Below are positions 1 to 54,630 of a stretch of 64,000 nt of DNA, piece after piece. Origin of the DNA: Antedon mediterranea. Lineage: Eukaryota; Animalia; Echinodermata. Position numbers and translations under genes: made by a program. Below the pieces are notes generated by a model. It saw only the letters and a list, made by a program, of their open reading frames with translations, made no database searches and was not told the origin of the DNA. The DNA is taken from NCBI RefSeq assembly GCF_964355755.1, contig NC_092677.1, positions 4,734,101 to 4,798,100 on the forward strand, given 5' to 3'. Every line of letters begins with the position of its first letter. Within the stretch, counting starts at the first letter, position 1.

Positions 1-2664
1 AGCAGGCATGACATATCCCTCGTCATCTTCAATATCCGAGTTTGCTGAAACTTTCAATTCTTGGTAGTGATGGTCTTGACATTCTCTCTGTTAATACAAT
101 AGATGGTATTTATTTAATCAAGTTTAGTTTTTGTGTGAAATAAGAAAATGTAAATGAACTGTAATTATTTGTTGAGTTTAAATTTTGTTACTTGAATTTA
201 CTCTCCACTTTTGAGATACATACTTCTTTATCAGACGTAGGCCTAACATATTCCTCGTCATCATTGTCAACATCAGTGTTTGCCGAAACTTGTAAATCTT
301 CATATTGGTGACTTTGACGTTCTATTTCTCTTACTTCTCTCTGTTAAACAATAGAGACGGTATTTTGTAGTAAACATACTTTTAAGGTCAATTTAAACAG
401 ACGAGCTTAACTTAAATTTTACCCGTATTCCTGTCCTGGATCTTTGTTTATTTGTCGTCCCGGTAACAGCAGACTCCATGGGTTCTTTCTTTAGCCATTT
501 GTAATCCTCAGAATTTGAAGAAAATTGCAATGCTTGATACTGAGACTTTTGGCACTTGGAAAGGATTTTTTTTATTTGTTTAACCTTATAAAAGAGAAAA
601 GTAACGATAACTCATAACAAATTACCTCCGCCAAAGTTATATTTTCACCCATGATTGTGTATGTTAATGTGTTTAATTTTCAAATCTCACCAAACTCGGA
701 GACAAAGATCTACAGGTATGACTAAAAGGTACAAAGTAACATGTTGAAATTGACCTCTGCATTCACCAGCATACACCAACACTCATACATTCAAACAATG
801 AACAAGCGCTGTATCCCAAATGTATCAAACCACCGTGTGCATAAAAAAATACTAAATGTTATCTTTTCGACCACTACAACCCTAAGTTAAAATATATATT
901 ATGCATTTTCTATAATCTAATTCTTTCTTGGTTAAATACATTTGATGACATGCTCTTAAGTCAAATTACCTGCGTTACAGTTCTCTAGAATAGCTGTATT
1001 ACTCATTTTTTCATTCTCTGCATAACATGTAAGACTTGACTGACATATCTCATCATTAATGCCCAAGGTTACTGAATTTTCTCCTTTTATAACCAATTCT
1101 CCATCTTGTAAGATCAATATTGTTGTTGAAAGTTTGGGATACCAACCATTTTTAGGTTTAAATGTCACAGTGATATCTAAACAAGTTAGAATAGAAATGT
1201 AGCTTATTAATTGTGGGACAACTCTCTGGAATTGAAAAACAAGTTGTATACCTGCTTGTATTCATTAAAAAACTGCTTATTTAAACCATCATAAAAAGCC
1301 TGATAAAGCTTCGGAAGGCAATTAAAATGTAGACAACCAATGCAAACAAACATTCTGAACCGTTTATCTTTTATCGAAAGCATCAAAAGCTTCGAATCAA
1401 TGCTTAATAGGTTGGCAGGACCAAGGAAGAGTGAAGTTGTAATCACTCTTACCTGGCAAAACATTTTAGGCCTATTGAAGATTGTACATTTACATACGGT
1501 ATATATCCAATTGTTTTTCAACACTTGTTTTAGCATCATCTCCTTTAAACTGATCACTTTCTGCTTTACATGTATATCTCCCACCGTCTTCTTCAGTAGC
1601 TGATTTAATCTTAAGAACTGACACTGTACTGTTATTTGTAATGTTTATATCTAGATGGGTTGATATTTATTCTGCATCCATCTTTATACCACGTTAGGTC
1701 AGGAATAGGGTCTCCATCAGGTTTACTGTATGTAAATGTTACTGTTTCGTTTTTGAAGGTATTGGATGCGGAAGCACGAATAAGAGGTTTCTCTAAGTCT
1801 GAGAAAACAGATGGAAGAGACTACAATATTAGAGATAGTATAATTGGTTGTTTGCCTAATGTCTAGCAGATTGTCTATTTAGTTATTGTGCGCATGATTT
1901 TTATAATCTGTTTAAACCATAAATTATTGTAGGTCTATTTAATGATTTTGGTACTCACAATACACAGTTAGAACAGAGGGATTAGATAAGTGATCTAATC
2001 CATATGTTGTTTGTATCTCGCACCGAAATCTTCACTGAGAATCATTTCTCGTTGGCTGTAACATCACCAAGTTAGCTCTCACAGATGTTATGTTCAATTT
2101 AAAACGACCATTTTCTAACACCTTATCATTAACAAAACCAGGAGTAGTGACTACGCCATCTTCATTTAATTCATCCCATTGTACTGTATTAGATGTAGTA
2201 GAAGTAAATTGTGAATAATCACAAGTTATCACCACTTCAGCATCACCTTCTTTAGCTATCTGGTCAGATGTTGTCACCGAATGACCATGTGATTCTAAAG
2301 ATAAGGATACTATACTTATTTATTCAGTAAAACATAGGATATTAATTATGGAAAACTATTGCAACCGGATTGAGCCTTTATATTTCAATTGCACTATTAT
2401 TGTATAGATATTTTTTTTAATTGTCTCTTAATAAGTTAAGTTGGAGATAACGTGTCTTGGTAGTAAAGGAAAGAATCAAGAAGTAGTAACAGGCGTCTAC
2501 TTGCGTCTTTTTTCGATTTAAAATGTCTTTGTCTTTTATTTAAACAGATACAAGTTTTAATGCATCTAGCATGCAGAACATATATATTATTACTTAAAAA
2601 CTACCAATAGGTAGGTTGTTACTAAATTGGTTTACCGAGTTTACAGCGGCAACCATAACACCAT
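1..2664 (-). pseudogene. IgSF ITAM-receptor paralogue 1, pseudogene (3' end runs off the window)
   Basis: Exons homologous to the intact paralogues: signal peptide 2636-2664 (deletion gives MVLWLPL*); V-Ig 1959-2294 (TGA at 2032-2034 where paralogues have Arg); I-Ig 1498-1798 (301 nt, +1 frameshift near 1645, B-strand Cys>Tyr); D3 970-1176 (first Cys deleted); no recognisable TM exon; ITAM exon 423-584 (YQALQFSSNSEDYKWL); Tyr-module exons 224-340 and 1-87. Confidence 0.85.
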
Positions 2665-2912
2665 ATCTGAAAAAAATTAAGGATTTTTACATTCAATAGA
2701 TTAATTAATATCTACCGTTGATGTTGTTATAATCAACACTTAGTTCATTCACGGCCTAAAAATGTCATTATATCAACATTTCTGTCGTTGTCTTGTTGTT
2801 GCCAACCTCACATCGCCATTGATAACGTAATAACCGTAATAAAAGAATGAGATGATTCTAAATCACCGACTTCTTCTGCGCATTTCGAAGTAATGGCAAC
2901 ATGCTCCTGCTC

Positions 2913-3094
2913 ATGAGACCAATTCAGACAGCTTCGTACGATGAGTCGTCTCGTCGGGAGAAAATAAACATGTTTGAATTTCTCCTGACACGCCGGGCAA
3001 GACGACTCGTCTCGTCGGGATTCAACTCAGACAGCACCGACGAGTCAAGAAGTTTCGTGGGGCCTCGTCGTACAACGCTGTCTGAGTTGGCCTT
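2913..3094. mobile_element. Palindromic MITE, possibly PIF/Harbinger-like
   Basis: Terminal inverted repeats of about 30 bp (gaccaattcagacagcttcgtacga / tcgtacaacgctgtctgagttggcc); GC-rich relative to flanks. Confidence 0.7.
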
Positions 3095-3757
3095 ACACGT
3101 TTACACATAAATATAATATATGGATTACAGTCATTGTCGAACACCAATCAACAAGGGCTTAAAAACTTTTATAAATTTTATTTAAATCATATTTATTACT
3201 CACCTCTATCTCTAGGCCTATACATGCTTATCAGCGTTTTCGATTTTTACGTATAAATAAGATATAAAGACAATATTTGATATATATGTAATTTATTTTT
3301 TCAGAACAATTGATGATGCTAAGAAGCTAAGCGTTAGTTTCAATTATGTTATATCTAAATCTACAAACTTCTTTGTACAGTACAGTAGACTCTCGAATCA
3401 GATTGACTGATGTCTTGTTCCCCGAAAACATGAAAAATGAAGATTAATATAAAAAAAATCAGACTTTCCATTTGGCATTTCAAATAAAGTTATTCACTTC
3501 CGTAGACAAAAAACGAACATAAATAATGATTTCACACAAAAAAACGGATAGGCCTATATTTCAGGTAAATAATTAGTGAATAAAAAATATGTGAAATTAA
3601 AATGGCATTTTCAACAAATCAATGTGTTTTAAATATATTTTCTAAGGAGACAATATGCCTATCTTTAATCAAAACTGTAGTAAAAATACAATAAATACGC
3701 AATTTTCCTTGCTAATTTAGTTTCTTTAAAGTTAAAATAAATGTACGTGAAAACGAC

Positions 3758-3955
3758 TTATGTATTCCGAATGTTAGAATAATGTGATTCTCCTCCTAAA
3801 ACGTTTCCCTTATTTGACAACGTACTGACAACACATTTCCCCTCACTTAGGTTCGGCTCTTCGTAAATGGCAAGACTTTCCGAATCTTTCACTTCTTGGT
3901 ATTGATTGTTACTTTCGATTTCTATTACCCGTCTCTGCACCCGTCTATGCGCCTG
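3758..3955 (-). other. Duplicate copy of the paralogue 2 terminal coding exon
   Basis: Nearly identical to 5852-6049, with acceptor and stop intact. Confidence 0.85.
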
Positions 3956-4181
3956 CTTGAAACAAATATGTATTTATATATTAACAATGATAAAGATATG
4001 CACACTGAATTTGTTATTAAAAGAATACCGTATATAAATAAAGAACATAAATATAGAAATAAAGATGCAACCTGTCCCGATCTATCATAGATAGGGAAAT
4101 GATAATATTTACATTCAATAGCATAAATTAATCTTGAAGTTCACATATATCATTGATGTAGTGTATGCCTTATCTGTTTCA

Positions 4182-4743
4182 CTATCATTAACAAAACCAG
4201 GAGTAGTGACTACGCCATCTTCATTTAATTCATCCCATTGTACTGTATTAGATGTAGTAGAAGTAAATTGTGAATAATAACAAGTTATCACCACTTCAGC
4301 ATCACCTTCTTTAGCTATCTGGTCAGATGTTGTCACCGAATGACCATGTGATTCTAAAGATAAGGATACTATACTTATTTATTCAGTAAAACATAGGATA
4401 TTAATTATGGAAAACTATTGCCAACCGGATTGAGCCTTTAAATTTCAATTGCACTATTATTGTATAGATATTTTTTTTAATTGTCTCTTAATAAGTTAAG
4501 TGTGAGATAACGTGTCTTGGTGGTAAAGGAAAGAATCAAAAAGTAGTAACAGGCGTCTACTTGTGTCTTTTTTCGATTTAAAATGTCTTTGTCTTTTATT
4601 TAAACAGATACAAGTTGTAATGCATCTAGCATGCAGAACATATATATATTATTACTTAAAAACTACCAATAGGTAGTGTGTTACTAAATCGGTTTACCGA
4701 GTAAAGAGTGTATAACAACTAACAGCGGCAACCATAACACCAT
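4182..4743 (-). pseudogene. Truncated duplicate of paralogue 1 5' end (intact SP exon plus half V exon)
   Basis: SP exon 4698-4743 encodes MVLWLPLLVVIHSLL. The V exon starting at 4353 breaks after PGFVND at the duplication junction. Confidence 0.85.
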
Positions 4744-4991
4744 ATCTGAAAAAAATAAGGATTTTTACATTCAATAGATTAATTAATATCTACCGTTGAT
4801 GTTGTTATAATCAACACTTAGTTCATTCACGGCCTAAAAATGTCATTATATCAACATTTCTGTCGTTGTCTTGTTGTTGCCAACCTCACATCGCCATTGA
4901 TAACCTAATAACCGTAATAAAAGAATGAGATGATTCTAAATCACCGACTTCTTCTGCGCATTTCGAAGTAATGGCAACATGCTCCTGCTCA

Positions 4992-5173
4992 TAAGACCAA
5001 TTCAGACAGCTTCGTACGACGAGTCGTCTCGTTGGGAGAAAATAAACATGTTTGAATTTCTCCCGACACACCAGGCAAGACGACTCGTCTCGTCGGAATT
5101 CAACTCAGACAGCACCGACGAGTCAAGAAGTTTCGTGGGGCCTCGTCGTACAACGCTGTCTGAGTTGGCCTTA
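4992..5173. mobile_element. Second copy of the palindromic MITE, carried by the tandem duplication
   Basis: Same TIRs, flanked by taa/tta. Confidence 0.7.
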
Positions 5174-5851
5174 CACGTTTACACATAAATATAATATATG
5201 GATTACAGTCATCGTCGAACACCAATCAACAAGGGCTTAAAAACTTATGATTTTATAAATTTTATTTAAATTATATTTATTACTCACCTCTATCTCTAGG
5301 CCTATACCTGCTTATCTGCGTTTTCGATTTGTACGTATAAATAAGATATAAAGACAATATTTGATATATATGTAATTTATTTTTTCAGAACAATTGATGA
5401 TGCTAAAAAGCTAAGCGTTAGTTTCAATTATGTTATATCTAAATCTACAAACTTCTTTGTACAGTACAGTAGACTCTCGAATCAGATCGACTGATTTGTT
5501 GTTCCCCGAAAACATGAAAAATGAAGATTAATAATAAAAAAAATCAGACTTTCCATTTGGCATTTCAAATAAAGTTATTCACTTCCGTAGACAAACGAAC
5601 ATAAATAATGATTTTACTTATGAAAATACAATAAAAAACGGCTAGGCCTATATTTCAGGTAAATAATTAGTGAATAAAAAATATGTGAAATTAAAATGGC
5701 ATTTTTAACAAAACAATGTGTTTTAAATATATTTTCTAAGGAGACAATATGCCTATCTTTAATCAAAACTGTAGTAAAAATACAATAAATACGCAATTTT
5801 CCTTGCTAATTTATTTTCTTTAAAGTTAAAATAAATGTACGTGAAAACGAC

Positions 5852-8800
5852 TTATGTATTCCGAATGTTAGAATAATGTGATTCTCCTCCTAAAACGTTT
5901 CCCTTATTTGACAACGTACTGACAACACATTTCCCCTCACTTAGGTTCGGCTCTTCGTAAATGGCAGCACTTTCCGAATCTTTCACTTCTTGATATTGAT
6001 TGTTACTTTCGATTTCTATTACCCGTCTCTGCACCCGACGATGCGCCTGCTTGAAACAAATATGTATTTATATATTAACAATGATAAAGATATGCACACT
6101 GAATTTGTTACTAAAGGAATACCGTATTAATAAAAACATAAATATAGAAATAAAGATGCAACCTGTCCCGATCTATCATAGGGATAACCGGTATGGTTCA
6201 CTAAAATATTTATATTTCTAGTTTCTGTAGAAGCAACCACACGTTTTATTATCAGTGTTGCTTCTGATCACACATCTTTGTTTATGGAGGACGTAAGCGT
6301 AACGTAAAGCTCTGTCTATTCTAACAAACTTCATGTGACAACAAAATGTGATGTACCCTTATGGACACGATGATGTCATATCACTACCATATTTGAGCAT
6401 ATCACTACCATATTTGGGCACATCACATATTTTTTGCCAAACTAGTTTGATGGCGTAGATAGAGCTTAAGTGATTTGACCAATCACAAGCGATGGATTAT
6501 TCCAACTTTCGCTTGTCTTTGATCATGCGTTGCGTCTAAACAAAAGAAGTTAAACGAGGGTTAATCAAAGATTACATGAAATAGTAGTTTATTGGTACCT
6601 CGTGTTCTTTAGAAGATGCTTTACGTGACGTAGTTCTGGCCCTGCGTCCATCATTTACTGAAGTATCTTTGCTGAGTTCTTGGTAAACACCAGAACCACT
6701 TGATGCAAACTGCAGTGCTTGATACTGAGAATGTTGACATTTTGATTTCATTTCTCGTATTCGTCTTTCCTAAAGAAACAATAGCAAGATACCATTGGGT
6801 GACATTCTATTTGAAATATTAATATTAGATATTTATACATTTAGTATGGTTTTTAAATCATGTGACTGTGTACAAATCCTAAAATAATGGGTTTAAATAG
6901 CGACTCTATTATAGACCACACCAAGATTGTACTCGTGTGAATAGGCTTAAGAAGAATATAAATATGAGACTTAACGACCTTCCTATATGTTGTAATTGTC
7001 GAAACGAAATAATTAAAATACTAATTTAAATCACATTAAAGGAAATAATAAAGACAACATTTTAATAATCTGACCTACTGTATGTTGGTACCGTATATAA
7101 TAAGATCTTTAAACAAATTAATTCCTCCCGTATTATCTGTATTTTAAATTTATAATCAATTACATTTGTTAAATGTCGTTAAATTATATGTCTGTGTGTT
7201 CGTAGAGTTTATACTTACATAAATATAACGGGTTGTAATAAAGGTAGGAACAGAGCCGAGGAAAAGCGCAGTTACTATAATTGCTACAGTTAGTACTGTA
7301 AATGTTGGACACGATTCACCTGGAAATATAATAATTGTCAACATATGAATACTATTATTACAATGTTCAGGCCATACCCTCCCCTATGTCAAAATCTTCA
7401 CCCGCCACCCTGCTATGCTTGTTATACACCAAATAGAAACATAGCTTGCAATTATTGTATTGGTGATTTGATAAGAAAACTTTATGTTACATTGATCATA
7501 GTTCATAGATTTATTTGTTATTATTTCCAATCGATTAAAAGACCTCTTTTACATCCCAAACAATGCTCGTGTGCGTGGTCCTACTTTTAAAACAAGAAAT
7601 TAAATAAAATAAACTATACGCTATGCATACTGGACAATTATATCAAGGCCTATACCTGCTTTACAGTTCAAAAGTGTTGCTGTTTTATTTAGCTTTCCAT
7701 TCTCTGCATAACATGTAAGATTTGGTTTACATATCTCATCATTAATTTCTATAGTTGCTGTATTTTCTCCTTTCTCAACCACTTCTCCATCTTGTAATAT
7801 CAATATTGATAATGGCTTGGGATGGCCCTCTGCTGTACATGTTGCAATACCATCTTCATATGTAAAAGTAACATGAATAGCTAAAAAAAAAAAAAATAAT
7901 ACAATCAGCATTATAGGCTACGGTTGATGCAACTCGATTCGTAATGACCATTTGTTTTTAGCATTTGGGTAAAATAAATTAGCTTTTTAAGAAGAATTGT
8001 AGAGGGAGGAGGGGTGAAAGCGGAGTGGTGGTGATGATGATGGTAGTGGTGAGTACGGGAGGGAGTTTATAAATGTTTATTTTACATACTATAAACAAGT
8101 ATGTTCATCTGTTTTCCAACACTTGTTTTAGCATCCTCTCCTTTAAACTGATCACTTTCTGCTTTACATGTATAATTCCCACCATCTTCTTCAGTAGCTG
8201 ATATAATCTTAAGAACTGACTCTGTACTGTTATTTGCAATCTCATATCTAGAAGGGTTGTTGGTGTTGACTGTCTGTCCATCTTTATACCAAGTAATGTA
8301 AGGAATAGGATCACCATAAGTTTTACTACAGGTAAAAGTCACTGATTGACCTTCGTATACAGTGCTTTCTGAGGTAGAAAGAAGTGGTTGATCTAAATCT
8401 GAAGAAAAATAATACGATAGATTACTGTGCTTGCTACATTCAACGATGTTGTGTCGAGATCTGTGATCATCAACAAGAAAACTAAAAACGTAAGATCCTT
8501 TTGCAGATTCTTCGCTATTTTAGAAAATTGTTGTTATATAATAAGTTATTGAAATTGAATCTGTGTTACTCACAGTATACAGTTAGAATAGATAGATTTG
8601 ATCTTGCAATATATCCATCTGTTGTTCGTATCACACACCTAAATATTCGTTGAGAATCATTTCTCATTGGCTGTGACATCACCAAGTCAGCTTTCCCAGG
8701 TTTTATGTTTAATTTAAAACGTACATTTTGTATCTTCTTATCATCTACAAGGTTTATTTTAGATCTATCTTTATACAGTTCATCCCATTGTATTTGAGGT

Positions 8801-9272
8801 GTAGTACTAGTAGTAATTACTTGTGAATAATCACAAGTTATCACCACTTCAGCATCACCCTCCTTGGCTGTCTGGTCAGATGTTGTCACTAATTGGCATC
8901 GTGATTCTATAAAGAGTATCAAACGTCTAGTCTTTATTAGACAGTAATAGGCTATTAATTGAAAACTGTATATAAGTTGTTTTTTTTTTAAACTTCAATT
9001 GAAATTATTTATGAATTCATTCATATATTTAAAAAAATATATTTTGAGATAAAGTTTCTTGATAAAGCAATAATCATACATAACAACATTAAAACGTCCA
9101 CGTGTTCTTTTTTTGGATTTAACATTCATTTGTCTGTAATTTTAAACAGATACAAATTATAATGCCTTTATCAGACCATATTCTATCGCTTAAAAACTAT
9201 CATTAGTTAGTACTGAATTAGTTTACCGAATAAAGAGTGTATAACAATTAACAGCACCAACCATACAGTCAT
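5852..9272 (-). CDS. IgSF type I membrane receptor paralogue 2 (SP-V-I-short Ig-TM-ITAM-like-tail), about 460 aa
   Basis: Seven phase-compatible GT-AG exons: 9227-9272 (MTVWLVLLIVIHSLF), 8574-8906 (V), 8090-8398 (I-type), 7656-7880 (D3), 7219-7319 (TM), 6599-6769 (YQALQFASSGSGVYQEL), 5852-6049 (ends SHYSNIRNT*). Frame open throughout. Confidence 0.85.
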
Positions 9273-10984
9273 ATCTGAGGGAAAATAATAATATTTACAT
9301 TAAATAGGCTTAATTAATCTTTAAGTTCTTATCTATCATGGATGTAGTGTATGCCTTATCTGTTTCACTATTTCACTATCAATAGGCCTAAACAAAAATA
9401 AATACAACAGGTATCAGCATCGTCGTTTTTGTCTTCCGCGGCTCACGTAATAATTTCACTACGGTAACTTATCATCATTGATAACGTCTTTAAAAATATA
9501 AATGTCGACAACGCGCTCCTCCGTTCCTCTTTCACATAAACAAAATTTAGATTACAATTTTTCATTAGAAACCAATCAATAAGCGCCTAAAACCATTATT
9601 ACTATTTGAAATTATTTCACCTGAGTTCTACGTGCCATCATAATTAAACCAGTCGACTACTTTAATCGAATTTCAAAGAGTTTTTCAAAGTTAACAAGTA
9701 TTTTTATCGTCATCGTCATCATCAATCACCATCAGTTTATCAACGTTATTATCAAGATAGCAATCATAATCAAATCACACCTTTTGTTATTTGCTGATCC
9801 CTTTGTCGTCAACATCAGAATGTTATTATGGTCATATTGTAAATTACATTAATTACTCACCTCTATCTCTGTATACTAGTCCTGCATGTCTGCGTTTTAA
9901 CTTTTTACGTAATAAGTTAATAATTACATATACAATCTTTGATATGTAATTTATTTGTTTCGATCTCGTGAAGAAGATAGTTTCAATTATGCTATATCGT
10001 ATTATCACTGATTTGATTTAATTGGTTACCACACAAAAATAACAACTTTTGTAAACAGTAAACAATAATAGTCTTTATTTATCAAGTCATTTTAATCTTG
10101 CTTTGAAACTAACATTTATGAGACAGGTTACTAAGTTCGATCACATAACTCGTTTCCATATATTATATATATATTTCTTCTACCCGAAAAGAGTATTGTT
10201 ATAAGTTTATTGCTTAAATAGTAGATGGAAAAGAAACTCACTCCACAATTATTGTTGATGGTCTATATACTTGGGTAGGCCTGCGATTCTACAACATGCT
10301 TCTGCTTATGTATTATATTTTATACAGCAATATGTGTGTTATGAAATGATAAATACTATAAATAAACTTTATTTCAGCAATAAACACCAACAACTAAAAA
10401 GTTATATACCTTTAACATTACAGTCTTTAAAAATGTCTCTCCATATAAAACATTTGTATACAAAAGGGATCTCATTGGCTAATTTGAACTATCCCTTTGG
10501 CTTTACTGTTTGTGCTTATATTAAATAAAAATCGTGTAGCACAAAAATAATCCTATATTATGAAACACAAGGGAACTATTGATTGGTTATTATTATATAT
10601 ATATATATTATATATATATATTTTTTTGCTGTACATGGCCTTTAAACTACGCAAGAAAAACAGTACAATTGAGAATAAACTACTTATGTCTACCTATTTT
10701 ACAATACTCTAATTCCATTAGTAGGCCTAGTCTATAGATGATAATAACGAGAATAAACAAAACATATTTTATACATAAATTACGCTTAAGCAGCTTTCAA
10801 TTGTTATTGTACTGTAGTCCTATATTATACTTTTGTTTTCGTTATGACTCTCATATAATTGGATACACTCTCGATTAGAGCAAGGTTGCATTTCCTAGTT
10901 TAGCATCTATTTTATGTTTTTGTTATTAATTTCAGTCGTGCAGAATAATATAACAATTTGTGTTTGTATTTATTAAGTTATATT

Positions 10985-16221: not shown

Positions 16222-17266
16222 TTGAAAAAAATGACGATCTGAAAATCTGAAACGATGTCTACCCTCCTTCCAACCTTTTACTTAACACCCTCCTCATCTC
16301 TTCTGTTTCCCAACTGAGCTCTTAACAGCCCCCGCTAAACGTTATTTCTTCAAATTGGCTGCTTTGCCTACCAAACTTCCACCAATGCCGTTCCTGATAA
16401 TATCAGTTGTATATTGTCAGAACTCAGCACGGAGGTGGTCTATGAAATACGCGATTTTCTACTAAAGGTAAGGACAATTAAATTATTTTGTTCCTCGACC
16501 TTTCTTTCAATTTTTAAACAATGTTATAGTTAGAAAGCGCCTACGTTTACTTTAACAAAATTCCCAATTACATAATATGTTATGTTGATATGTATAAACT
16601 CTTTTAAATTAAACTTCAACTCAAACGATTTATTGCTAGTAGATAGGCCTAAATAAGTTTTTTTTTTACCATTTTAACGATTTTATTTTATTTTTTATTT
16701 GAACAATATTTAATTTATACACTTAACTTGTTCTGAATATTCATATTTTATGTGTTTGTATTTATATGTTTTATGGAGAGTCCTTAATGAAAAATTCCTT
16801 TACTAGAACTGGATAGGCTACCCTCATTAAAGATGGTAATAGATAAGTAAATGCAAATAATGAAAGGACGTGTCTGTAATAGTAATAATAAAAGAAATAG
16901 GCTAAACAAGACGAATGATGGCTTACATACCCTTTATAAAATAAGAATAAAAAACAACTTACATTCTTGGTCTAGGCGCAACCTATGTCTATAGCTATCA
17001 TCAATTGCTTTATTATTCAACAGAGACTAGAACTTGATGTCGATCAGCTTTTCGGTGAAAACAAGTGGAAATTACTGAAATTTATAGAGGGCAGCAACCA
17101 AAAGTATGATCATTATTTTGAGAGAGGTATATCAAAGAACTTATAACACAAGAATCTCCTGTTCTTCAATTTGCATTCAAAACACAGTATCGGAAGTACA
17201 GGGTTAAAAGGTCAAACTGGGCGACGCCTTTTCACAGCATGGAGCAGCGCCCCCTCCAAACTAGGA

Positions 17267-41920: not shown

Positions 41921-41954
<34 letters not shown>

Positions 41955-44900
41955 TTTCAGTATATTTGATCTGAATATTCTAGCTTTACAAGTGTGCAAA
42001 AAAAAAAATGTAGAGGCTCTCTACTTGAAACGCTGTTTATATATTACAGGTCCAGTTTTAACAATGGAAAATAAAGAACTGCACACTGTTGAAGGAGGAA
42101 ATGCAAGAATTCCTTTTTATGTCTCGCCAATACAAAAACAAATTAACAAATTTATTTTTTATAAATTTGAAAAGGAAATTGCTGATAGTCTTACAATTTT
42201 TCGGAGATTTAAAATTAAATATAGTGAGGACAAGCTGACAGGTTTCCTTGAAATTTCTAATGTTAAATCTTCTGATGCTGGTGACTACCGTTGCAAATGT
42301 GTGATAGAAGGAAAGGATGTTTACTCTACAAAAAGCAGGTTGGAAGTTACCAAAGCCTGTAAGTATATAATATTAGGCCAAACAAAGATTTGTTTGCCCA
42401 CCATTCTTGAAAATTGTTCAAAGGATTGGTTGGGGAGGGGGAATTTTTTCTCCGTAATTGAGGACTTCTCATAAATTGTCAAACAAAATAAACATAAATA
42501 AATAAATAAATCATTTTGTTTGACAAATCCAAAAGAAATTACTCACATTCTTTAGCTTTCACCATCTTGGCTGATGGCTTGATCATCATCATAATTCATC
42601 AGTTCAGTCTGTCGTTCTGTGCTGTGTACACATGGGTAAGAGTGAAGTGATGGATCAATTGCGACTGACATGTAAGCGTTTCAGAATCAAAATATGAGAA
42701 GCGTACTGAATATTTCTAATCAATGCAATTCTTTATAGACCTAATAATATTATTCTGGCCCTTGACTTTCTGTGTGTGTGCGTGTGTGTGTGAATAGAAG
42801 TAGGGGGTGGTTCCAAATGAGTTATAAAGAATTAGCATCACCTTGCTTTATCTTGTGTTTTCTTCAAAGTATGAAATCTTTTACCAAAATTCATAATCAG
42901 AAATTAAAAACATTTTATACTACGGTATATCTTTATTGTTAATTTGTTTAATTTATTGCACTATAGCAGCACCTATGATATGCTAAGTACGTTAAGTTTG
43001 TTTTTAGTCAACTGAAGTTCTGTATTTTAAATAATGAAATACATCTTTACATCTTGCATGCCCGGTACAAAAAGACATTATTACCTGATAAACTTCTTTT
43101 TTGTCTGAAAATAATATTAATTCATATATTTTAATCACCAATAAGAAATACACATTCAAATATTACTTTTATATCATGATATTTGTTTTTGTTTTTTTCT
43201 GTTGAAATGTTTTGGTACTATTGTATAATATTATTGTGATAGTAATTCCATCTAAAATATACTATTTCTACTTTTAGATATAAGACTCAATGATGGTCTT
43301 GTGATGAATGGGGAAAAGGCAGTTTTAACTTGCAAGTATGGACTTGACAATCAAGTGAAATATGTCAATTGGTATAAAAAGACTGGTGATGAATCTCAAG
43401 AGGAGAAGATAGAAAAAGTACCAGAAAGATGTAAAGTAACTCATGATAGGCTTAATCAAACAAGCTTAGAGTTCCAAGAAGTGACATTGGCTGATGCTGG
43501 GGAGTACATATGTGAACTTACAACTGCTACAGAAATAACCAAAGGCAAACTTTCAGAAACACATACATCATCTGCACACCTGCATGTACAGTGTAAGTAA
43601 AAATTGTGTATTTAAGCTGGTTATTAAACAATCGAATTGTGTAAAGCAGGTAGTAGTTTCACCTAATATAGTGTAATTGGCTTTTCTCTATGCTTTGGTA
43701 ATATCAGGGAAGAATACAGTATATTCAATTTTCTTAAATACCCAAACGATAGTCGGCCTACAGGAACTATTTTGTTTGGATATTCCATAATGAATATTGT
43801 CATATGATTTCAAACTGTTAATAAATTCATTGTATAATATTGTTACCGTATGTGTATATTGTAAACTGATTTCATCAAAACACCTTTAGATATTAAACTG
43901 AATGATTGTCTTGCGACACATGGAGATAAAGCTGTTTTAACTTGCAAGTATGGAATTGAAAATCAAGTAAAATATGTCAATTGGTATAAGAAGACTGCTG
44001 ATCAAGACATAATGATATTTACTTCTGATAAGTCTCAAGAGAAGAAGATAAAAAAAGCACCAGAAGGATGTAAAGCAATTTTTAAAGAAAATGAATCAAG
44101 CTTAGTGTTTGAGCAAGTTTCGTTAGCTGATGCTGGAGAGTACATGTGTAAAGTGAAGGAAAAACTTCCATCACATACAGCATCAGCACACTTGCATGTA
44201 CAGTGTAAGTTGATTTCTACATAATATGCATTTTAAAATTGATATTAAAACAATTGATTGACTTGATGAATATAGTTAAAAATACCTATGTTGATCTGAA
44301 GGAAATATGATATCTCTCAGATGAATTACTGTAATTGTAGGGTATAGTTTGATTAATTGAATGTTGTTTCCAACTTTGATGTACTGTATAATCCACAGTT
44401 AATTGTAAAGACTTGAAAAAAGTTATCATGTTGGACGTCAACCTTCAGATCACTAACCTGGAACTCGTACCTTTAGCTCACATAGCTTGCACATATAATC
44501 ATTGTTTATGAGTTGTCAAAATAATTTACTTTATTCAAGTAGGGAGTTGTAATTACAATTTAATAATGATTTTTGTGATGTTTTCAAGAGGGGGTCGAAC
44601 ATGATTTAATTCCATGATTCAAGGAAATATATACATTATTTTAGTAGATTTAATTGTTATTCAATTAATGTTGAAAGCTAGGCTGATGCAACATTTGGTA
44701 CTTTCTTTTCGACTGGTGGAGTAGGAAAATTGAACTGGGTTAGTATTGGAATTCATAACAAATTATGACACCTAGCTTGTATTTCATTTTCATTCCCTTA
44801 TTTTTATAGGCGATGTGTTTACTGAACAAGTTAAAACAAGGTAAATTGATTTCCATTCAAAAAAAAAAAATGTTTTTCTATTTTAATTTTGAAAGTCAAG

Positions 44901-47668
44901 GTTTGAATTTGACTTTAAAATAACTTCTTGAGTTGAGAGAATTATCTTGAAATTGTACTGAAATTTATCTTTTTAGACACCCTGCGGTAGTCTTTATAAA
45001 TTCTCACTTTATCATCTTTTGTGAAGAAAACAACTCAGATGTGATAATGAGAAGAGGAAAATTGAATGGCAAGAGTTTGATTGAATGGAAAAAAGCAAAA
45101 ATAATTTTTAATGAAAAGGAGACATGGTAATTAGTATTGTGTTGACCGACATTGGCAAACATTGTTTGCTGGTTATAATGTTTCTAGTACATTTAGATAA
45201 GTAATCAATTATTCATTTTGTTTCATTTTCTATGATATTACCATTGACATTAATATCAAAGAACATTTGTAAATTGTATTTAGAAACAATGACGGTACAA
45301 AAGATGTCTCCAAAAAGTGGACAAAGTTGATTGTAAAAATGTAAAACATTTTTTTAATAATTCTACAAATTTACTATACAGCTTTCAGAATCTAGTACCA
45401 ATTGTGACAGATAAGGAAAATGGAAAAATGACTCTAATGTGTGTTAGACAAAATAACAACACAAAAGAGAGGAAGATAATAAGGATGAAATCTGATGATA
45501 ATGGAGTCAACTGGACAGAACCAGAAGATGTACAATTGGATTTGAAAGGCTTACCCATATATTTTATAAGTTAGTATAAGTTAATTAGTTTTTATTGAAG
45601 TTGATATTAAATATCTGAGCTGTACATCATGGTTTTGAATATGAATTAGTCATATTCAAAACCATTATGTTAGTTTTTTCTGTTATTTAAATTTTTTCTA
45701 ATGTCAGTACAAGTATTACCATTTACATTATAAACCCATTTACTGATACCATACACAAGAAGCAACAATTTAAACAACCAATTTTACACAAATGTTTTAT
45801 GTACTTACCAAAATACTGATTTGTTATAGGGTTTTTTTTTGTTTAAAGTTTTTTAATAAACATTTGTATAAAGAAAATGTTTACTTTTATCTATCTTGAT
45901 TTTAATATATATATGTTTTACTTTATGTAGTAAACAGTATAAATGTACTGCAGTAATCAATGTGTAATTATATGTATAAATTGTTTTTCAGGCCTTGGTG
46001 ATGGTGTATGCTTACATTCAGGAAAATTGGTTGTTGCAGGAGTTTGGACGCTAAAGGATAATGAAAGCATAGAAAGTAATTTATTTAAATGATCTTTATA
46101 GAATTAAGAAGGTGCTCAAATATTTATTATGTACATAAGGTGATCGTTCGGTTCCTTAAATGAATATATTTGTTTTGGATATGTCAAAGATCTTTGAACT
46201 CCTCAAGTCTCTCACTTGAATTGTGTCATATGTGAACCATGCATTAAATCTTAATTTGAATTCAATAAAAATGCATCACAATGACCCAAGAACAGCAGTT
46301 GATCTAAACATTTGTTTCTGTTTATAAAGTCCAGTACTATAGCAATCTGCATGGGGAGATAATAGCTAACTAAAATGCGTTTTTCATGTTTATGGTTTCA
46401 AGTTGGCCATGTTATTTTTATTGTTAATATTTGTTTATTTTTCAGAAAAACTGTTTGTGATGACTGGTACTAATGATGGTGACACCTGGGATATTGTTAC
46501 TGCTGTTAAATCACCCTATGCTACTTTAGGAGGACACACACAAGTAAGAAACTTATAAATGCCCAGGGTTTCATTTCTAATGATCATATTTCAGTGCCAT
46601 TTTGTCATACAGTAATGTAATTTGTTTATTAGGTTTTTGAATATGCAAATGACAATGTTTACATCAGCTGTTCATTGGAGGACTGTAAACAACGTTTCCG
46701 TGTGTACGGTGATGAAGGATTTAGAACGTTTAATGTCAAGACTGAGGATGCACAATTAGAGACAAATCCAGAGTGCCAGGTATTCTCTACAATATAATTT
46801 TTTTTTTATTTGTTGAAGTGTTGAATGTTCTTGAGTTGTAAACTCGGCCCTAAGGCCGTTTTTGACTTACTTTAGTATCCACATATAAACAAACTAAATT
46901 GTATCAAAGTTTTTTATATGATTTCTTATCTTATATGGAATAATGAAATAAGTAAAAAAAAGAATATTTCATGAGTTGAAAGATTGAATGTTCTATTGAA
47001 CAAAGCGGAGCTGAGATATAAACAAATACAAAATATTCATTATTTGTTTTATATTAACACCTTTGGCCAGGATATAGGCCATTAAAAAAAGTGCTCCAAT
47101 TATTGAGGTAATTTGATTCCCATGATGAAAATTCTGTTCTATTCTACATAAGTATTAGCTTCATGTGTGCGACAGGTAGAGTATCACACTGTTTGCCTTG
47201 TGTGTAATTAAAAATTGTTTTTATGCCGAAGTGGGAAATTACTCTAGAGAATATGCGAAACAAACATACCCCTAGTTATTTTAACATTGTTTAAAAGATG
47301 TTTAAATTGCAATACTTGCAATTATTTGATGTGTTGGTTTAACTCTATTTGCTTATATTATTATCTAGGGTGGTATTGTACGTTTACCAACAAAGACAAA
47401 TCAGTTCTACCAAATAGCAATGGCAAGTCATGGAAATGAAACAAAGGATCTTACACTTCACTTAAGTGAAGATGGTTGTAAAACCTGGTGTCAGTTTAAC
47501 ACACTAGGTGCAGTGAATGCAGAAGAATCTGACCTAGCTTACTACAGTGTAAAAGAAGGGAAAGAAGAAGCAAAAGGAATAGTGTGTGTTTACAGTTATA
47601 GTTCAGAAACAGAGGGTTATAAGATTGGAATGCAGCTGATTTCTAACAAAGAAATTATGTTAATGTAA
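21898..47668 (+). CDS. Chimeric IgSF receptor paralogue 4: V-I-Ig ectodomain, TM, six further Ig domains, C-terminal degenerate sialidase (NEU-like) propeller, about 1400 aa
   Basis: Phase-compatible exon chain: 21898-22227, 26101-26412, 26620-26844, TM 28332-28415, 28634-28894, 29274-29313, 29733-29889, 30307-30361, 32278-32296, 34114-34133, 34574-34705, 35932-36243, 36632-36958, 42050-42358, 43278-43592, 43890-44204, 44810-44840, 44977-45126, 45382-45569, 45992-46075, 46446-46543, 46633-46779, 47369-47668. No stop until 47668. The signal-peptide exon is uncertain (candidate 21061-21102) and the micro-exon choice is provisional. Confidence 0.7.
23008..23633. mobile_element. TTAA-flanked MITE (Kolobok-like)
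   Basis: ttaa|agccccattccctacgtttt ... aaaattgcagggaaggggtct|ttaa: imperfect TIRs with a TTAA target duplication. Confidence 0.65.
25400..25480 (+). pseudogene. Orphan 5' fragment of an I-type Ig (D2) exon
   Basis: gcctcaacaagcactgtctatgaaggtcaatcagtgacctttacctgtagta is nearly identical to 26124-26175 and is followed by an interspersed repeat. Confidence 0.7.
25510..26025 (+). repeat. Interspersed repeat of about 520 bp, copy 1
   Basis: Highly similar to 49072-49587; a more diverged partial copy lies at about 10370-10590. Confidence 0.85.
27160..27540 (+). mobile_element. Degenerate LINE (L2/CR1-group) ORF2 fragment
   Basis: Translates to [18 protein letters not shown]...[17 protein letters not shown], the conserved pre-RT region of non-LTR elements. 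Confidence 0.75.
27545..28109 (+). mobile_element. Non-autonomous Helitron/Helentron-like element
   Basis: 5' tacctccgcc and 3' gcggaggt subterminal inverted motifs, a 3' hairpin (gtactctcggagtac) and a CTAGT end. Embedded minus-strand tRNA-like segment at about 27895-27960. A related 5' end occurs at about 620-650. Confidence 0.55.
28332..28415 (+). CDS. Transmembrane exon of paralogue 4
   Basis: tag|...|gtaagt, 84 nt, phase 1-1, encodes [28 protein letters not shown]. Not homologous to the TM exon of the other paralogues. Confidence 0.75.
29355..29595 (+). mobile_element. tRNA-derived SINE
   Basis: A/B-box-like head (agtggttagg...gggttcaattccc), a ctcagctgtaaatgagtacc core and an (acctt)n-like tail. 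Confidence 0.65.
34955..35865. mobile_element. MITE with G/C-tract subterminal repeats
   Basis: TIRs aggcccgtagc / gctacggccct, poly-G and poly-C just inside the ends, and a 7-bp direct repeat gtacaac at 34948-34954 and 35866-35872. Confidence 0.75.
35932..44204 (+). CDS. Five single-exon Ig domains of paralogue 4
   Basis: Phase 1-1 exons of 309-327 nt, each with a D-A-[GR]-x-Y-x-C F-strand motif (DAGMYQC, DARKYTC, DAGDYRC, DAGEYIC, DAGEYMC). The last two are a tandem duplicate pair. Confidence 0.85.
36985..41238 (-). mobile_element. BEL/Pao LTR retrotransposon, 5'-truncated and frameshifted, in an intron of paralogue 4
   Basis: Broken pol ORFs: RT ([28 protein letters not shown]), RNase H region ([14 protein letters not shown]), integrase (H-H-C-C zinc finger, GVDYFGP, GGVWERM) and C-terminal WPMARV. 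Purine tract at 37846-37857 abuts a candidate 3' LTR, 36985-37845, bounded TG...CA. Confidence 0.93.
41702..41773 (+). other. tRNA-like sequence (tRNA pseudogene or SINE head, nominal TGT anticodon)
   Basis: Foldable as a cloverleaf: A box tggtctagtgg, anticodon stem ctcgc/gcgag, B box ggttcgaatcc. Mismatches in the acceptor and T stems. Confidence 0.5.
44810..47668 (+). CDS. Sialidase-like (GH33, NEU2/3/4-type) beta-propeller, predicted catalytically inactive
   Basis: Seven exons give RHPAVVF (RIP motif), FIIFCEE..DVIMRRG..IEW, Asp-boxes SDDNGVNW and SEDGCKTW, degenerate [21 protein letters not shown] (GPGHG motif), CQGGIV and EESDL (AYSDL motif), in the order known for animal sialidases. 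Confidence 0.8.
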
Positions 47669-49071: not shown

Positions 49072-49587
49072 AAAAACATGAATTTCCCTTAAAATTGTCA
49101 AATACAAAAATTGGCAAAATTCTGTTATATAAACCAGGAAGACTTTTTTTCAGTAGTTAGATAGTTTAACCTAATGTAATAACATGTCTGGTGACTCCCT
49201 AGAAGGTGAAAAAAGATGGTGGATATATGGTGGATATTGTTCTATAGCATGATAAAAATAAAACTCTGAAGTTGAATAAAAATACTACAAACGTAAAATT
49301 CAAGTTTATTACCTATATTATAGTCATCTGATAACATTATTTACCACACTGTTTATTTTTCATAGTTTTTTAAAAATGGCTCTCAATACAACTTTTTTGT
49401 GTACAAAAGAATAGAGATTTTACTGTGTAATTTGAACTATCCCCCACTGATAAGAAAGTGCTTATTTTCAACAAGCTCGTGTAACACAAATAAAATCCCC
49501 AAAATTATGAAACATAGGGGAAACTATAGATCAATATTTATTGGAATGTATGATCAATAGAAATGTTTTGCCCGCACCTGACCTTTA
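49072..49587 (+). repeat. Interspersed repeat of about 520 bp, copy 2
   Basis: Matches 25510-26025, e.g. ggtgactccctaga..ggtgaaaaaagatggtggatatatggtgga and ttttgcccgcacctg. Confidence 0.85.
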
Positions 49588-50249
49588 CCATATCGTATCA
49601 AAGCAGGGAGTTGTAACTCCCTGATCTTCGATAATGGTACAGACTATTAACGAAACTTAACTATTGCTATTGTATTGTTTGCATAATATTATTGTTTTCG
49701 TGTGACTCTCGTATACAGTAAAAAATTTCTATTAGTTTACAGGTTTCTACAATTTTCTCTACCGATTTGCAAACATCTTTATTTGGAAATAAGAAATATT
49801 TCCTCTACGATTATTACATGATATATGTAATGTAATTGGCAAATCTAAAAACATTTCTCTGCATGTAAATCGTCCTACTACCTTAATACCTAATTACTAT
49901 GGCCAATTGATGTTTTCAACTGCTTTCGTTCTACCTACTAGGCCTATTATTTATCTTGTTGTTTTGCATAATGGATAACTTTAACTGCATTGTACTACAA
50001 TTAAACTTTTTGGAAACCTCTTAAAATGTATACTTCTTAATTATAGACATTCTTCATGTTCAGAGTCCTGTCTAATCAGTGCATTTGGTACCGCCGTGAC
50101 CTCTCGTAAGCGAACATCTGCCAAATCCTTTTACTGACATTGCCCTTTAATGTACAATTGCATTTTTTGTTTGATTTACCTCACGTTGGCGGAAACATGG
50201 AAATATGTTCAACTGCTCGATGCATATCTGTTGAGCATGAATATTAGTA

Positions 50250-53200
50250 CTATATGCCTAACTGTTGACAATAATGCGATTCTGCAACTTTTCCTTTATT
50301 CGACGTACTACTAACATCATGATGAGGCTCTTCGTAGCTTACACTATTTGTCGAAATCAGTCCTTGGTTTTGAGGTTCCATTTTAATTCCTTCTCTTGTT
50401 TCCTGGAGAAACAATAATATTTATCATTGATCATGAGGAAACTTTTGTTTAAACAAAAAACTTAATTTGAACTTGACTTAGTTAGCAACTCCCTATTGAA
50501 CTTAGCTAAATGTTGGTTTCAAGTCGCTCAAAATTCAAAATTAGATTCTTCTTGCTGGAACTGTTTGTTGGGACTAATCAATTGTTGATTTTAATTCGTG
50601 TAACTTGAGTATAATGACATTGTTACTTTTGCGATACATACCACTTTGTTAGAGGTGGGTCTAACATATCCCTCATTATCTAAGTCGACATCATTGTTTG
50701 CAGAATTAACTTGCAGATCTTGGTACTGATGACGTTGACGTTCATGCCCTCTTACTCCTGTCTGAAAAAAGAAATAGTGTTTGTTAGTAACATTGATGTT
50801 GTTGTGGTACTTGTATATATTATCAGAAGAAGAAAAAATTAAGCTAGCACAATTGACTTTAAGATACGATTTTATTTCCCGCTGTTAATTAGACGTGCTG
50901 TATCTTCTTCTGTAACGCTTTGGTCGGTCATGTGGATATTAGGGACTATACGTTAAAATAGTGTCACTTGAGTATACTAATATGTTTAACCCGGCGGTCC
51001 CTCCAATCAACTTTGTGATACATAGTACTACGTCATTATACCTCAATGGCCTTGGCATATCCCTCGTCATCTATGGCGATATCAGAGTTTTCCGAAACCT
51101 GCAGATCTTGGTACTGATGATGGTGAAGTTCGATTTCTCTTACTTCTCTCTGTTAAACAATAGATGATGATTGTGTAAATATTGATGTTCTTGTAGCTAA
51201 ATAGTAACCATTTTCGTTGATCACCTATTTTTATATAATTAGGAACTAATCAATTGCTGAGTATCGTGTAACTTGAGTATACTAAAATTGTTACTTTTGC
51301 GATACTGTACATACCACTTTATTAGACGTGGGTCTAACATAGCCCTCGTCATCTAAGTCGACATCATTGTTTGCCGAATTAACTTGCAGATCTTGGTACT
51401 GATGACGTTGTCGTTCAGGCTCTATTACTCCTCTCTATCAAACAAAATGGTGTTAACATTACGTTAGTAACATTTTTAGTTTATTTCGTTTATTCAATAA
51501 ATTATGCACAAATATATATAAAAAACATATGATAATAATTACATTAACAAGTTCAATAGTACTTTAAAATATATTATGTGGAAGGAAGCTAATAAGCTAA
51601 ATAGTGTAATTAACTTTACGCCTAGGCTATCAGAAACAAGCGAATTACAATAATAAAATGTTGGGCAGAAAAAGATACAACATAATACTATACGATATAT
51701 TATTATTAAAAATAAATTGATGTTTAGTTGTGTAACTTGTATAATATATTTTAGGTAACGCTTAAACTTTCCGCTCTCAATTACACATAACTTTAAGCTA
51801 CTAAAAAGAGGTATAACGCTTTCATCGGTCATATAATAGTGTCCCGTATACACACAAGTTTAACCTCCCGTCTCCCAATATTGTGATACACACTGAACTA
51901 CTTCATTATACCTCAATTGGCTTGACATATCCCTTGTCATCTATGGTGACATCCGAAACTTGTAGATCTTGGTACTGATAGCGTTGACCATCGATTTCCC
52001 TTACTTCTCTCTGTTAAACAATATGGTGTTTTATATAGTTTGTATCTCTTTAAAATAATAAATAAATATTGCTTTAATCTTTACTTAAATTAGAAAGAAT
52101 GGTAAAACTTAAGTTTGAATTGTTACACACGAGTAGAGATTTTTTTTTTAAATGTCTCGGAAAAGGTTTACCTGTATTCTGGTCATTGATCTTGCTTTAG
52201 TTGACGTCCTGGTAGCACTAGCCTCCATCGTAGGACCTATGTTGAGATCTTTGTATTCTCCAGTATTTGAAGACAATTGCAAGGCTTGATATTGAGGATT
52301 TAGGCACTTTGAAGTTATTTCTTGTATTCGTTTTAGCTTAATAGAAACAATAATAAACAATATAAAGTAGATCTAATAAAAGTTTAAGTCTACTTACTTA
52401 TTTAATTTTAAGTTGTAAAAAAAGGTCAACATCTTGTTTATTTAAAATTACTTACATAAATATAACGAGTTATTATAAACATCGGAACCAGGCAAAGAAT
52501 TGCAGTAATTGCTATAGTTATCAATATACTTATTGCATACGAACAACCACCTATAAATTATAAATATACAATGTTAAATATTGAAATATACATTGCTGTA
52601 CTACATTATACTAAACACTATTCTACAGTATAAAATGTGTTCCAGAAACAAGTCAGGGGTGAAATTTACCTATATTACATGTACAGTTTTGTAGAGTATC
52701 TGTATTGCTACGCTTTTCATTCTCTGCCCAACATGTAAGATTTGATTGACATATCTCATCATCAATTTCTATAGCTGCGATGTTTTCTCCTTTCTTAACC
52801 ACTTCTCCATCTTGTAATATCAATACTGATGAGGGCTTGGGATGACCATCTGCTGTGCATGTTGCTACACCATCCTCAGATGTAAAAGTAGCAGTGATAT
52901 CTAAACAAAAATATGATACTAGTAATACTGATGTGGCATATTTATAAATTATTTTGTGAAATTTGAACATTTTTCTTGAGCATTATGTTATGAAACTTGT
53001 ATTGCCTATTAAAATTAGTATTATCAAAACATTGTCACGTGCCATTTCTGAATGGAGATTAATTATGTACAGTATATAGAAAACATTTTCTCTAGAAAGT
53101 GATTTTACAAAATTCAATTTTTGATCTGTTATTCTTTATTATGTCATCATTCAGCTGCATATAAATAATAAATATATGTGTTATAGATTTATTACTTTAA

Positions 53201-54630
53201 AATTCAATTTGGACATACAATATCCAATTATGGTTAGCTGTCTTCCAACACTTGTTTTAGCATCCTCTCCTTTAAACTGGTCACTTTCTGCTTTACATGC
53301 ATATCTCCCACCATCTTCTTCAGTAGCTGATTTAATTACAAGCACTGACTCTACATTGTTATTTGCTGTTACGTATTTAGAAGTTTCATTTATATTGACT
53401 GTCTGTCCATCTTTATACCACGTAATGTCAGGAATAGGGTCACCATCATGTTTACTACATGTAAAGGTCACGGAATGACACTTATATGCAGAACCTGATG
53501 ACACATTAAGAAGAGGTTGATCCAAGTCTGTAAAAACATAATAAAATAGTAATGAAATGTGACAGTTAATAAATAAAGAATGATATTTATTATTATTTCA
53601 ATTTAGTCGGACATTTACTGATAGCAATCTTTTGGTGAATGTCAGAGGGGATTTCAGATATATAGCTACTAATCGTGTAGCGTAATGTACCGATGACATG
53701 CAGTGCCGGCATCTGCATGAACCACCGAAGTAGATTTCCAGGCCGAGAATAATTGTCTTCATACATTTCAGATATTATTTATTTACAAATGAAAGAAAAA
53801 AACAATTTTGTTAGAATAATGACATTAATTTTACTTACAATATACAGTTAGTAACGATTGGTTTGACATTTCAATGTTCCCATTTTTTGCTCGGATCTTG
53901 CATTGAAATTCTCGTTTAGAATCACCTCTGGTTGGCTGTGACATCACCAAGTCAGCTCTACCAGGTGTTATGTTTAACTTAAAACGATCATTTTCCATCT
54001 TGTTCTTATTAACAAAACCAGGATTAATGATTACCCCTTCATCTAGTTCATCCCATTGTATTACATCAGGTGTAGTAGACATAACTTGAGAATAATCACA
54101 AATTATTACACCTACAGAGTCACCCTCTTTGGCTTTTTGGTCAGATGTTGTCACCGACTGTCCATGTGATTCTAACAAAAAGAAAGAAATACCAAAAATA
54201 CTAATACATGATATACTAAGGTGTTTTGATAAGCAACATTAATCGTAAAATCAGATTAAAACATTTATGAATTTTTATTTTTCAATGACGTTTAAATTGG
54301 ACTTGGAAACATTTCATTAAGACACGAAAACTGTTCTAATTGTTTTTCTGTAGAAACAATCTAAACGGCTAATATGTTGTCCTTATATCGTCCTTATAAA
54401 CATGTTTTTGTGTGTCTACTATCTATCTACTCCCTGCTGTTGTAATTTCAACCATAACACGCATTTATTTTAACTATTTAACTATACAGTATGTCTGTCT
54501 GTTATACGACAGCACCAACTAATAATAAAACTAATAGAATTACGATATTAGAAATACCACTAGTGTATATATATACTTTACCGAATAAAGAATGCTGTAT
54601 AACAATTAGCAACGTCAACCATAACGCCAT
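50250..54630 (-). CDS. IgSF ITAM receptor paralogue 5 with four tandem Tyr-module exons, about 593 aa
   Basis: Exons: 54582-54630 (MALWLTLLIVIQHSLF), 53839-54171 (V), 53219-53527 (I), 52670-52900 (D3), 52456-52550 (TM), 52172-52336 (ITAM YQALQLSSNTGEYKDL), 51912-52010, 51315-51434, 51042-51149, 50642-50761, terminal 50250-50402. In frame. Confidence 0.87.

Follow-up and report, generated by a model that had tools for sequence, protein, structure and literature searches.

A candidate immune or self-recognition receptor cluster in the crinoid Antedon mediterranea: one immunoglobulin ectodomain with ITAM-bearing, ITIM-like and pseudo-sialidase tails

In the paired immunoglobulin (Ig) receptors of vertebrates (LILR, KIR, SIRP, NITR, CD300), the activating forms mostly combine a charged membrane residue with an adaptor bearing an ITAM (immunoreceptor tyrosine-based activation motif). 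In Hydractinia, the Alr genes encode clustered receptors that have V-set plus I-set domains and carry ITAMs or the corresponding inhibition motifs (ITIMs) in their tails (10.1101/2022.03.04.482883). Echinoderm immunity is mainly described through expansions of Toll-like receptors, NLR, scavenger receptors, and SpTransformer (PMC13428168). Here, we describe a window, i.e., the whole analysed stretch of 64,000 nt of the crinoid Antedon mediterranea (NC_092677.1, positions 4,734,101–4,798,100; all coordinates below are window positions). It has 32% G+C, and exon-sized similarities recur over its first 54.6 kb (1–54.6 kb). Four intact genes (B, C, D, and E) and one broken gene (pseudogene A) share a V–I–short Ig outer part and differ in their tails. 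The initial annotation of this DNA had counted five paralogues with a common ectodomain plan; the plan stands, while the fifth copy is the pseudogene.

The splice models of B, C, and E were built by hand with AG/GT ends and checked by script. Gene B (5852–9272, minus strand) has 7 coding exons and encodes 459 aa: a signal peptide (SP), V, I, and short Ig domains, a transmembrane (TM) helix, an ITAM exon (6769–6599), and a last exon with an ITIM-like end. Gene C (10985–16221, minus strand; 12 coding exons, 597 aa) has a degenerate short Ig domain, a TM helix, an ITAM exon (12988–12818), five tyrosine-module exons, and a last exon. Gene E (50250–54630, minus strand; 11 coding exons, 593 aa) has the same SP–V–I–short Ig–TM order as B, an ITAM exon (52336–52172), four tyrosine-module exons, and a last exon. 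For gene D (17698–47668, plus strand), the search over AG/GT ends gave a single solution of 25 coding exons and 1435 aa, which reproduces XP_071958824.1 (P0002); this protein maps on the plus strand with 1428 of 1435 residues. XP_071958823.1 (P0019) maps to gene C with 585 of 587 residues, and the hand-built model agrees with it save for the first exon. The searches returned no database model for genes B and E, for which our own models are used.

The exons of the V, I, and short Ig domains are of phase 1-1 in all four intact genes, in line with the identical exon phases of the SP–V–I–short Ig plan in the initial annotation. The plan is not uniform in two places: the short Ig domain of C is shortened to 55 aa and lacks the second cysteine, and the SP exon of D (21061–21109) is of another type, with no similarity found to the other SP exons. 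The remaining exons of the D ectodomain and membrane helix (21061–28415, plus strand) encode V (21898–22227), I (26101–26412), short Ig (26620–26844), and TM (28332–28415). Among the window genes, the V domains are 57–68% alike and the I domains 67–81%. Pfam recognised the I domain strongly (E about 1e-17). For the V domain, its matches were weak (best 1.3e-4) or lacking (0 families for B), and for the third domain, of 55–76 aa, it gave weak Ig matches (E 0.006) and no Fn3 match. The V and I profiles did not match each other. In the AlphaFold structure of the paralogue P0005, which is poor as a whole (mean predicted local distance difference test score, pLDDT, 44.9), the V domain has an Ig-like strand order with pLDDT of 60–86. 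The helix cores of B, C, D, and E are uncharged.

In B, C, and E, the ITAM is located in the first cytoplasmic exon and reads YQAL-x9-YQEL, YQAL-x8-YKEL, and YQAL-x8-YKDL, respectively. Such a motif arose in 0.01–0.24% of 10000 exon shuffles and in 0.3–2.6% of whole-tail shuffles, and a chance origin was rejected. The YxxL-x8/9-YxxL spacing falls within the consensus quoted for Alr (10.1101/2022.03.04.482883). The spliced frames confirm the previously proposed additional tyrosine modules, five in C and four in E; they are phase-0 exons before the last exon, of the form YxxL followed by acidic-Y-x-x-P or A. The combination of an ITAM-like motif and an ITIM-like end in B was borne out for the ITAM; the end, SHYSNI, is by itself within chance (19% of shuffles) and draws its support from conservation in relatives. 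The ITAM is kept in six of the nine members with a B/C/E-type membrane and tail region, including P0032 of Antedon and P0033 of a second crinoid, Anneissia. The V domains of these two are only 30–38% alike to the main Antedon set, yet they retain the ITAM and, as B, have ITIM-like terminal motifs. JAM/CTX/nectin adhesion proteins carry a C-terminal PDZ-binding motif; in the window genes, a terminal hydrophobic-x-hydrophobic triplet is present in E and absent from B and C. A search with the C tail found none among 2247 candidates; this blank is uninformative because P0069 and P0071 later showed such tails. Compared with P0007, the isoform P0008 has 81 additional aa that contain two strict ITIMs, a result seen in 0.5% of shuffles. 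An ITIM exon of this kind was looked for in the introns of D and not found.

The crinoid locus is similar to Alr in having clustered single-pass receptors with V followed by I, one domain per exon, pseudogenes, exon shuffling, and ITAM or ITIM motifs in the tail itself, and also in that the tails vary more than the ectodomains. However, the Fn3-like spacer of Alr before the membrane was not found here, its place being taken by the short Ig-like unit, and D-type tails differ from the motif-bearing tails described for Alr in containing folded Ig and propeller domains. No Alr or other cnidarian protein occurred among the 20 named of the 61 new matches described below. The Botryllus FcoR receptors (PMC12582321) are also Ig receptors, with ectodomain–tail recombination and birth-and-death clusters; their tyrosine motifs include ITIM and hemITAM and are switched by alternative splicing, as in P0007/P0008. 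Unlike FcoR, the crinoid proteins lack Sushi domains (Pfam, exons and whole proteins) and have a full two-tyrosine ITAM, and no separate motif-less partner family was seen. Thus, the cluster resembles Alr and FcoR in layout and motifs and, by domain composition, belongs to neither, in agreement with the earlier view that it is not a recognised named family. Bivalve membrane proteins with DED, TRADD-N, and variable C-terminal modules (PMC8195603) are likewise lineage-expanded and vary their inner modules while the outer part stays constant, but this outer part is cysteine-rich and not of the V–I Ig type.

With the vertebrate paired receptors, the crinoid genes share, at the level of motifs, similar ectodomains with activating or inhibitory output in fast-evolving clusters; they differ in the uncharged helix core, in the ITAM lying in the same chain, and in V domains that form a crinoid radiation.

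A profile of the four V exons retrieved 12 proteins, all from Antedon mediterranea and 11 of them on the 28.6-Mb contig. The full HMMER search gave 68 matches with 61 new identifiers, 20 of which were named: nine from Anneissia japonica, three from Antedon, six from bony fish, and two nameless. The V profile was built from Antedon sequences, and this may bias the sample. The fish matches are repeated or partial generic Ig matches, and the whole-domain V matches among those named are crinoid. At least 16 Antedon models contain the ectodomain, 15 of them on the 28.6-Mb contig; A, B, and E come on top of these, and the nine Anneissia proteins are family members as well. On a tree with Anneissia and the P0032/P0033 outgroup, all 12 Antedon V domains group together in a single clade (95/85), separate from eight Anneissia domains. 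A reading as the orthologue of one JAM, lachesin, or neogenin gene, and so as a conserved single-copy adhesion gene, was rejected, the whole-domain V matches among those named being crinoid and the Antedon copies forming a species clade. The family is thus clustered, lineage-expanded, and of the birth-and-death type, as was first proposed, and it is larger and more varied in its tails than could be told from the window.

The tail types appear to be older. Both members of the outgroup have an ITAM tail, and Anneissia P0023 carries a tail motif like that of D. In the Antedon-only V and I trees, tail types cluster no more than labels that were shuffled. Between D and P0001, the V domains are 99% alike, and the parts after the membrane 74–86%. 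The contrast between a single Antedon V clade and older-looking tails, the unclustered tail types, and the D/P0001 comparison point to ectodomains homogenised or swapped over older tails. Several paralogues deserve separate mention. P0003 (XP_071958841.1) is one residue off the ectodomain of C and has no membrane helix; this nearly identical, recent copy may be a secreted form or an incomplete one. P0009 (XP_071947494.1) is of the D type and located on another contig, with V alone outside, three isoforms, and no sialidase-like end. Residues 965–1285 of P0006 (XP_071958835.1), encoded outside the window, resemble TRADD-N and DED (atlas score 0.85); this is a lead only, and Pfam found nothing in the last 317 aa of the protein. 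The TRADD-N/DED pair has been tied to immune and death proteins (PMC8195603).

The tail of D is of a different kind, and the proposed Ig/pseudo-sialidase tail was recovered in a single open frame. After one strong helix, D encodes a likely split Ig domain (28634–34705): the first half together with a cysteine string in one exon (28634–28894), five small linker exons, and the second half (34574–34705). The string has 8 cysteines in 27 aa, and the linker is of low complexity; D includes exons of 19 and 20 nt. Five further Ig domains follow (35932–44204), one exon each; they are lysine-rich, and two lack the B-strand cysteine. When the two halves of the split domain were joined by script, they aligned in order along a profile made from the intact Ig domains that follow the membrane in this family and scored 24 bits, versus 17 for the second half, exceeding all 20 shuffles in 5/5 proteins with one profile and in 4/5 with a wider one. 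A complex prediction for the two halves gave 0.17 (mark 0.34). The cysteine string is the best-kept part of the D-type proteins (81–92%), and Pfam found nothing in its exon beyond a weak DUF599 match.

The D tail ends with a sialidase-like (BNR/Asp-box) beta-propeller of seven exons (44810–47668). It was recognised by Pfam BNR_2 (E 1.4e-13, 51.3 bits versus a cut-off of 31.4; atlas score 0.96) and by a sialidase profile (E 4.5e-7). Its AlphaFold structure is moderate (pLDDT 51.1), and a fold search with this low-confidence model placed NEU2 first (Z 15.6, root-mean-square deviation 4.0, 199 residues aligned), with NEU1 at 12.5; a PDB search with only the last sialidase exon returned no sialidase. 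Like NEU2 and the GH33 enzymes, the propeller has Asp boxes and the first arginine motif, but the catalytic tyrosine and two of the three arginines are gone, and it ends a membrane receptor. The first triad arginine is kept as RHP or RRP in all five sequences reaching it, the second aligns to a Cys/Ser stretch, and the third aligns to lysine (in the paralogue P0013). The place of the nucleophile tyrosine is occupied by glutamate (ESDL) in 7/7 sequences; it was set by the spacing from the last Asp box and NEU2 Y334/D336 numbering, with no printed alignment (spacing, PMC3031224; companion source for the reference positions, PMC5669518). The glutamate partner of the tyrosine is kept in five of the seven sequences and lost in D. 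Because of these replacements, the D propeller is predicted to be inactive, and an active sialidase was rejected. A bacterial origin was also rejected: the atlas neighbours are bacterial, but the propeller is encoded by seven exons, and its fold is matched best by NEU2. The proteins P0013–P0016 consist of the pseudo-sialidase with 0–3 Ig domains and no membrane helix; they may be free cytosolic forms or partial models.

We consider, with a probability of about 0.6 (0.62), that the crinoid Ig-superfamily receptor genes of the window belong to a tandem cluster for mixed activating and inhibitory recognition, of an innate immune or self-recognition type; the immune function is what we infer from the sequences. 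It is unlikely, though worth weighing, that the family works instead in cell adhesion or regeneration, in gamete contact, or in tissue identity or neural wiring, with the motifs driving cytoskeletal or engulfment (Draper-like) signals. The V and I ectodomain is similar to those of JAM/CTX/nectin-type adhesion proteins, for which family members are automatically named at NCBI, purifying selection dominates, and Alr1 and Alr2 are adhesive too (10.1101/2022.03.04.482883). Such a role is harder to reconcile with the species-specific expansion, the pseudogenes, partial duplicates, and near-identical recent copies, with the presence of both ITAM and ITIM forms, and with the possible TRADD-N/DED tail of P0006, if that lead holds.

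V-domain variation peaks in the CC' and FG loops. The ratio of nonsynonymous to synonymous differences (pN/pS) is 0.99 (0.68–1.56) for a loop set chosen after the alignment was viewed, versus 0.46 (0.28–0.71) for the remainder, which is uneven constraint within V and no demonstration of positive selection. Several observations speak against a recognition cluster with the tails as described. The loop ratio near 1 fits relaxed constraint equally well, and none of the 24 pairwise intervals for the ratio of nonsynonymous to synonymous divergence (dN/dS) lies wholly above 1 (estimates 0.14–1.09). The ITAM is lost in three of the nine members of its type (P0022, P0069, and P0071, the last judged by eye). 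The D-like match in P0023 consists of a 13-residue motif and lysine-rich Ig domains, the model being partial and having no membrane helix, and a single origin of each tail type is not rejected by single-domain trees (approximately unbiased test, p 0.17–0.29). As for D, three of its post-membrane Ig domains retain the canonical cysteine pair and its membrane helix is not followed by a basic cluster, as would suit a luminal place; the gain from joining the Ig halves is modest, and AlphaFold left the split-Ig/cysteine-string region unfolded (pLDDT below 50, paralogue P0005).

The last points bear on the side of the membrane on which the D tail lies. If the cysteine string were a second helix, the Ig row and dead sialidase would be outside the cell as a sialic-acid-binding lectin arm. 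The string is hydrophobic (Kyte–Doolittle 1.75–2.0) and is the best conserved segment, and a glycan binder, like Ig domains with intact cysteine pairs, would be more sensible outside. Nevertheless, we regard a two-pass topology as quite improbable. Glycosylation sequons are enriched in four of six ectodomains and in none of the six post-membrane parts, including the region past the string. The membrane insertion estimate is +0.7 to +1.8 for the string versus −6.5 to −7.8 for the true helix, so that the string is far less favourable. The basic cluster is located after the string, as are the optional ITIMs of the P0008 isoform; the Ig halves lie on either side of it; and P0006 has the Ig type of D after one helix with a basic stop-transfer and no second helix. 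Together, these observations favour a cytosolic tail, and the best fold match of the propeller, NEU2, is itself cytosolic; the Ig row and pseudo-sialidase of D are thus likely inside the cell. It is highly improbable that annotation has joined a short receptor gene to an independent gene for a soluble Ig/sialidase-like protein downstream: four NCBI models (P0013–P0016) do hold the sialidase-like part without a helix, and no read spliced over the junction was seen, but the same membrane-to-tail junction recurs in five separate genes on two contigs, two of them with several isoforms, and the 25 exons of D make up a single open frame, in which the splice sites are canonical and neither a stop nor an SP exon lies between. 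The tiny exons of D and the several annotated isoforms of two paralogues presumably imply transcript support, given NCBI pipeline practice.

If the cluster acts in recognition, the V domain, being most variable in its outer loops, would bind a cell-surface ligand. In B, C, and E, a Src-type kinase would phosphorylate the ITAM, which would recruit Syk/Shark directly, with no adaptor chain, and the repeated modules (YxxL, acidic-YxxP) could add docking sites for SH2 adaptors, their number being set by exon duplication. Terminal or optional ITIMs (in B and in the paralogue isoform) may bring in SHP-type phosphatases, which would weaken the signal. The whole D chain beyond its single helix would be cytosolic; the cysteine string and basic cluster may be fatty-acylated and hold the chain at the inner leaflet, with the Ig row and dead sialidase propeller as a binding scaffold. 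Unequal crossing-over and gene conversion would shift ectodomain exons between the tail types.

An extension of this view, tentative and on balance doubtful, is that the locus corresponds, in echinoderms, to the leukocyte receptor complex and recombines one recognition ectodomain with ITAM/ITIM tails and also with folded cytosolic effector or decoy modules. Such modules would include the fatty-acylated split Ig domain, the intracellular Ig rows, the pseudo-sialidase, and, in another member, TRADD-N/DED. This would be a class of surface receptors with integrated, swappable intracellular domains, comparable with the integrated domains of plant immune receptors. A clustered Ig family with ITAM and ITIM outputs would bridge cnidarian Alr, chordate FcoR, and vertebrate paired receptors. 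It would also offer, within the echinoderm class that branched off first, named candidates for roles in allorecognition or pathogen sensing. Whatever the function, the proposed architecture of D, in which a receptor that crosses the membrane once combines cytosolic Ig domains, one Ig domain interrupted by a cysteine string, and an inactive sialidase, may be unprecedented and can be tested directly. In a literature search of listings and abstract openings, mostly without subscription papers, neither a description of this family or of echinoderm ITAM-bearing Ig receptors nor a printed precedent for cytosolic Ig domains together with a pseudo-sialidase in one receptor was found. V-type Ig genes of the sea urchin, reportedly described in 2006 by Rast and by Hibino, may bear on this novelty.

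The pseudogene and partial duplicates seen in the initial annotation were also recovered. Pseudogene A (1–2666, minus strand), which extends past the window start, has a shortened SP exon, a stop in V, a frameshift in I, a short Ig exon, an ITAM exon, and two tyrosine modules; its membrane exon was looked for and not found. The ITAM exon is intact (585–422, YQAL-x8-YKWL). A 2-kb tandem duplication (2124–6181, minus strand; 2124–4090 corresponds to 4183–6181 with 95.6% identity) has left the last exon of B and the first exons of A each present twice. It includes the second copy of the B last exon (3952–3758), an extra SP exon near 4740, and a truncated V exon (4357–4183). At the duplication junction (4094–4185), 92 bases match the region just before the SP exon of B (9280–9371) with 88% identity; this is likely a trace of unequal crossing-over between paralogues. 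An orphan fragment of an I-domain exon (25416–25479, plus strand) lies inside an intron of D.

Genes C and D are arranged head to head (16221–17698), their start codons being 1476 bases apart, and may share a promoter, as may be compared with the paired Botryllus FF/FcoR genes. Three sequencing runs over the window behave as DNA, with introns covered and no splice joints shown, and are therefore uninformative on expression. In the summed contig depth, a measure that is not a copy number, exons are far above unique introns, and C introns are about threefold or more above B introns. Run X1 has zero cover in 4 of 30 bins over C, the V exon included, which proves nothing.

A broken BEL/Pao-type retroelement (37814–41422, minus strand), with its coding region in seven separate frames, is located in the D intron between the Ig exons at 36958 and 42050. 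A tRNA-Thr(TGT)-like sequence (41701–41774) in a high-copy stretch of a D intron is probably a tRNA-derived repeat. A dispersed 520-base repeat is present at 25514–26028 and 49072–49590 (90% alike), with a partial inverted copy at 10426–10645. Two arrays of a 130–132-base tandem repeat, at 56398–57610 (nine copies) and 60983–61784 (six copies), flank a LINE-like (long interspersed nuclear element) reverse transcriptase fragment at 58980–59840.

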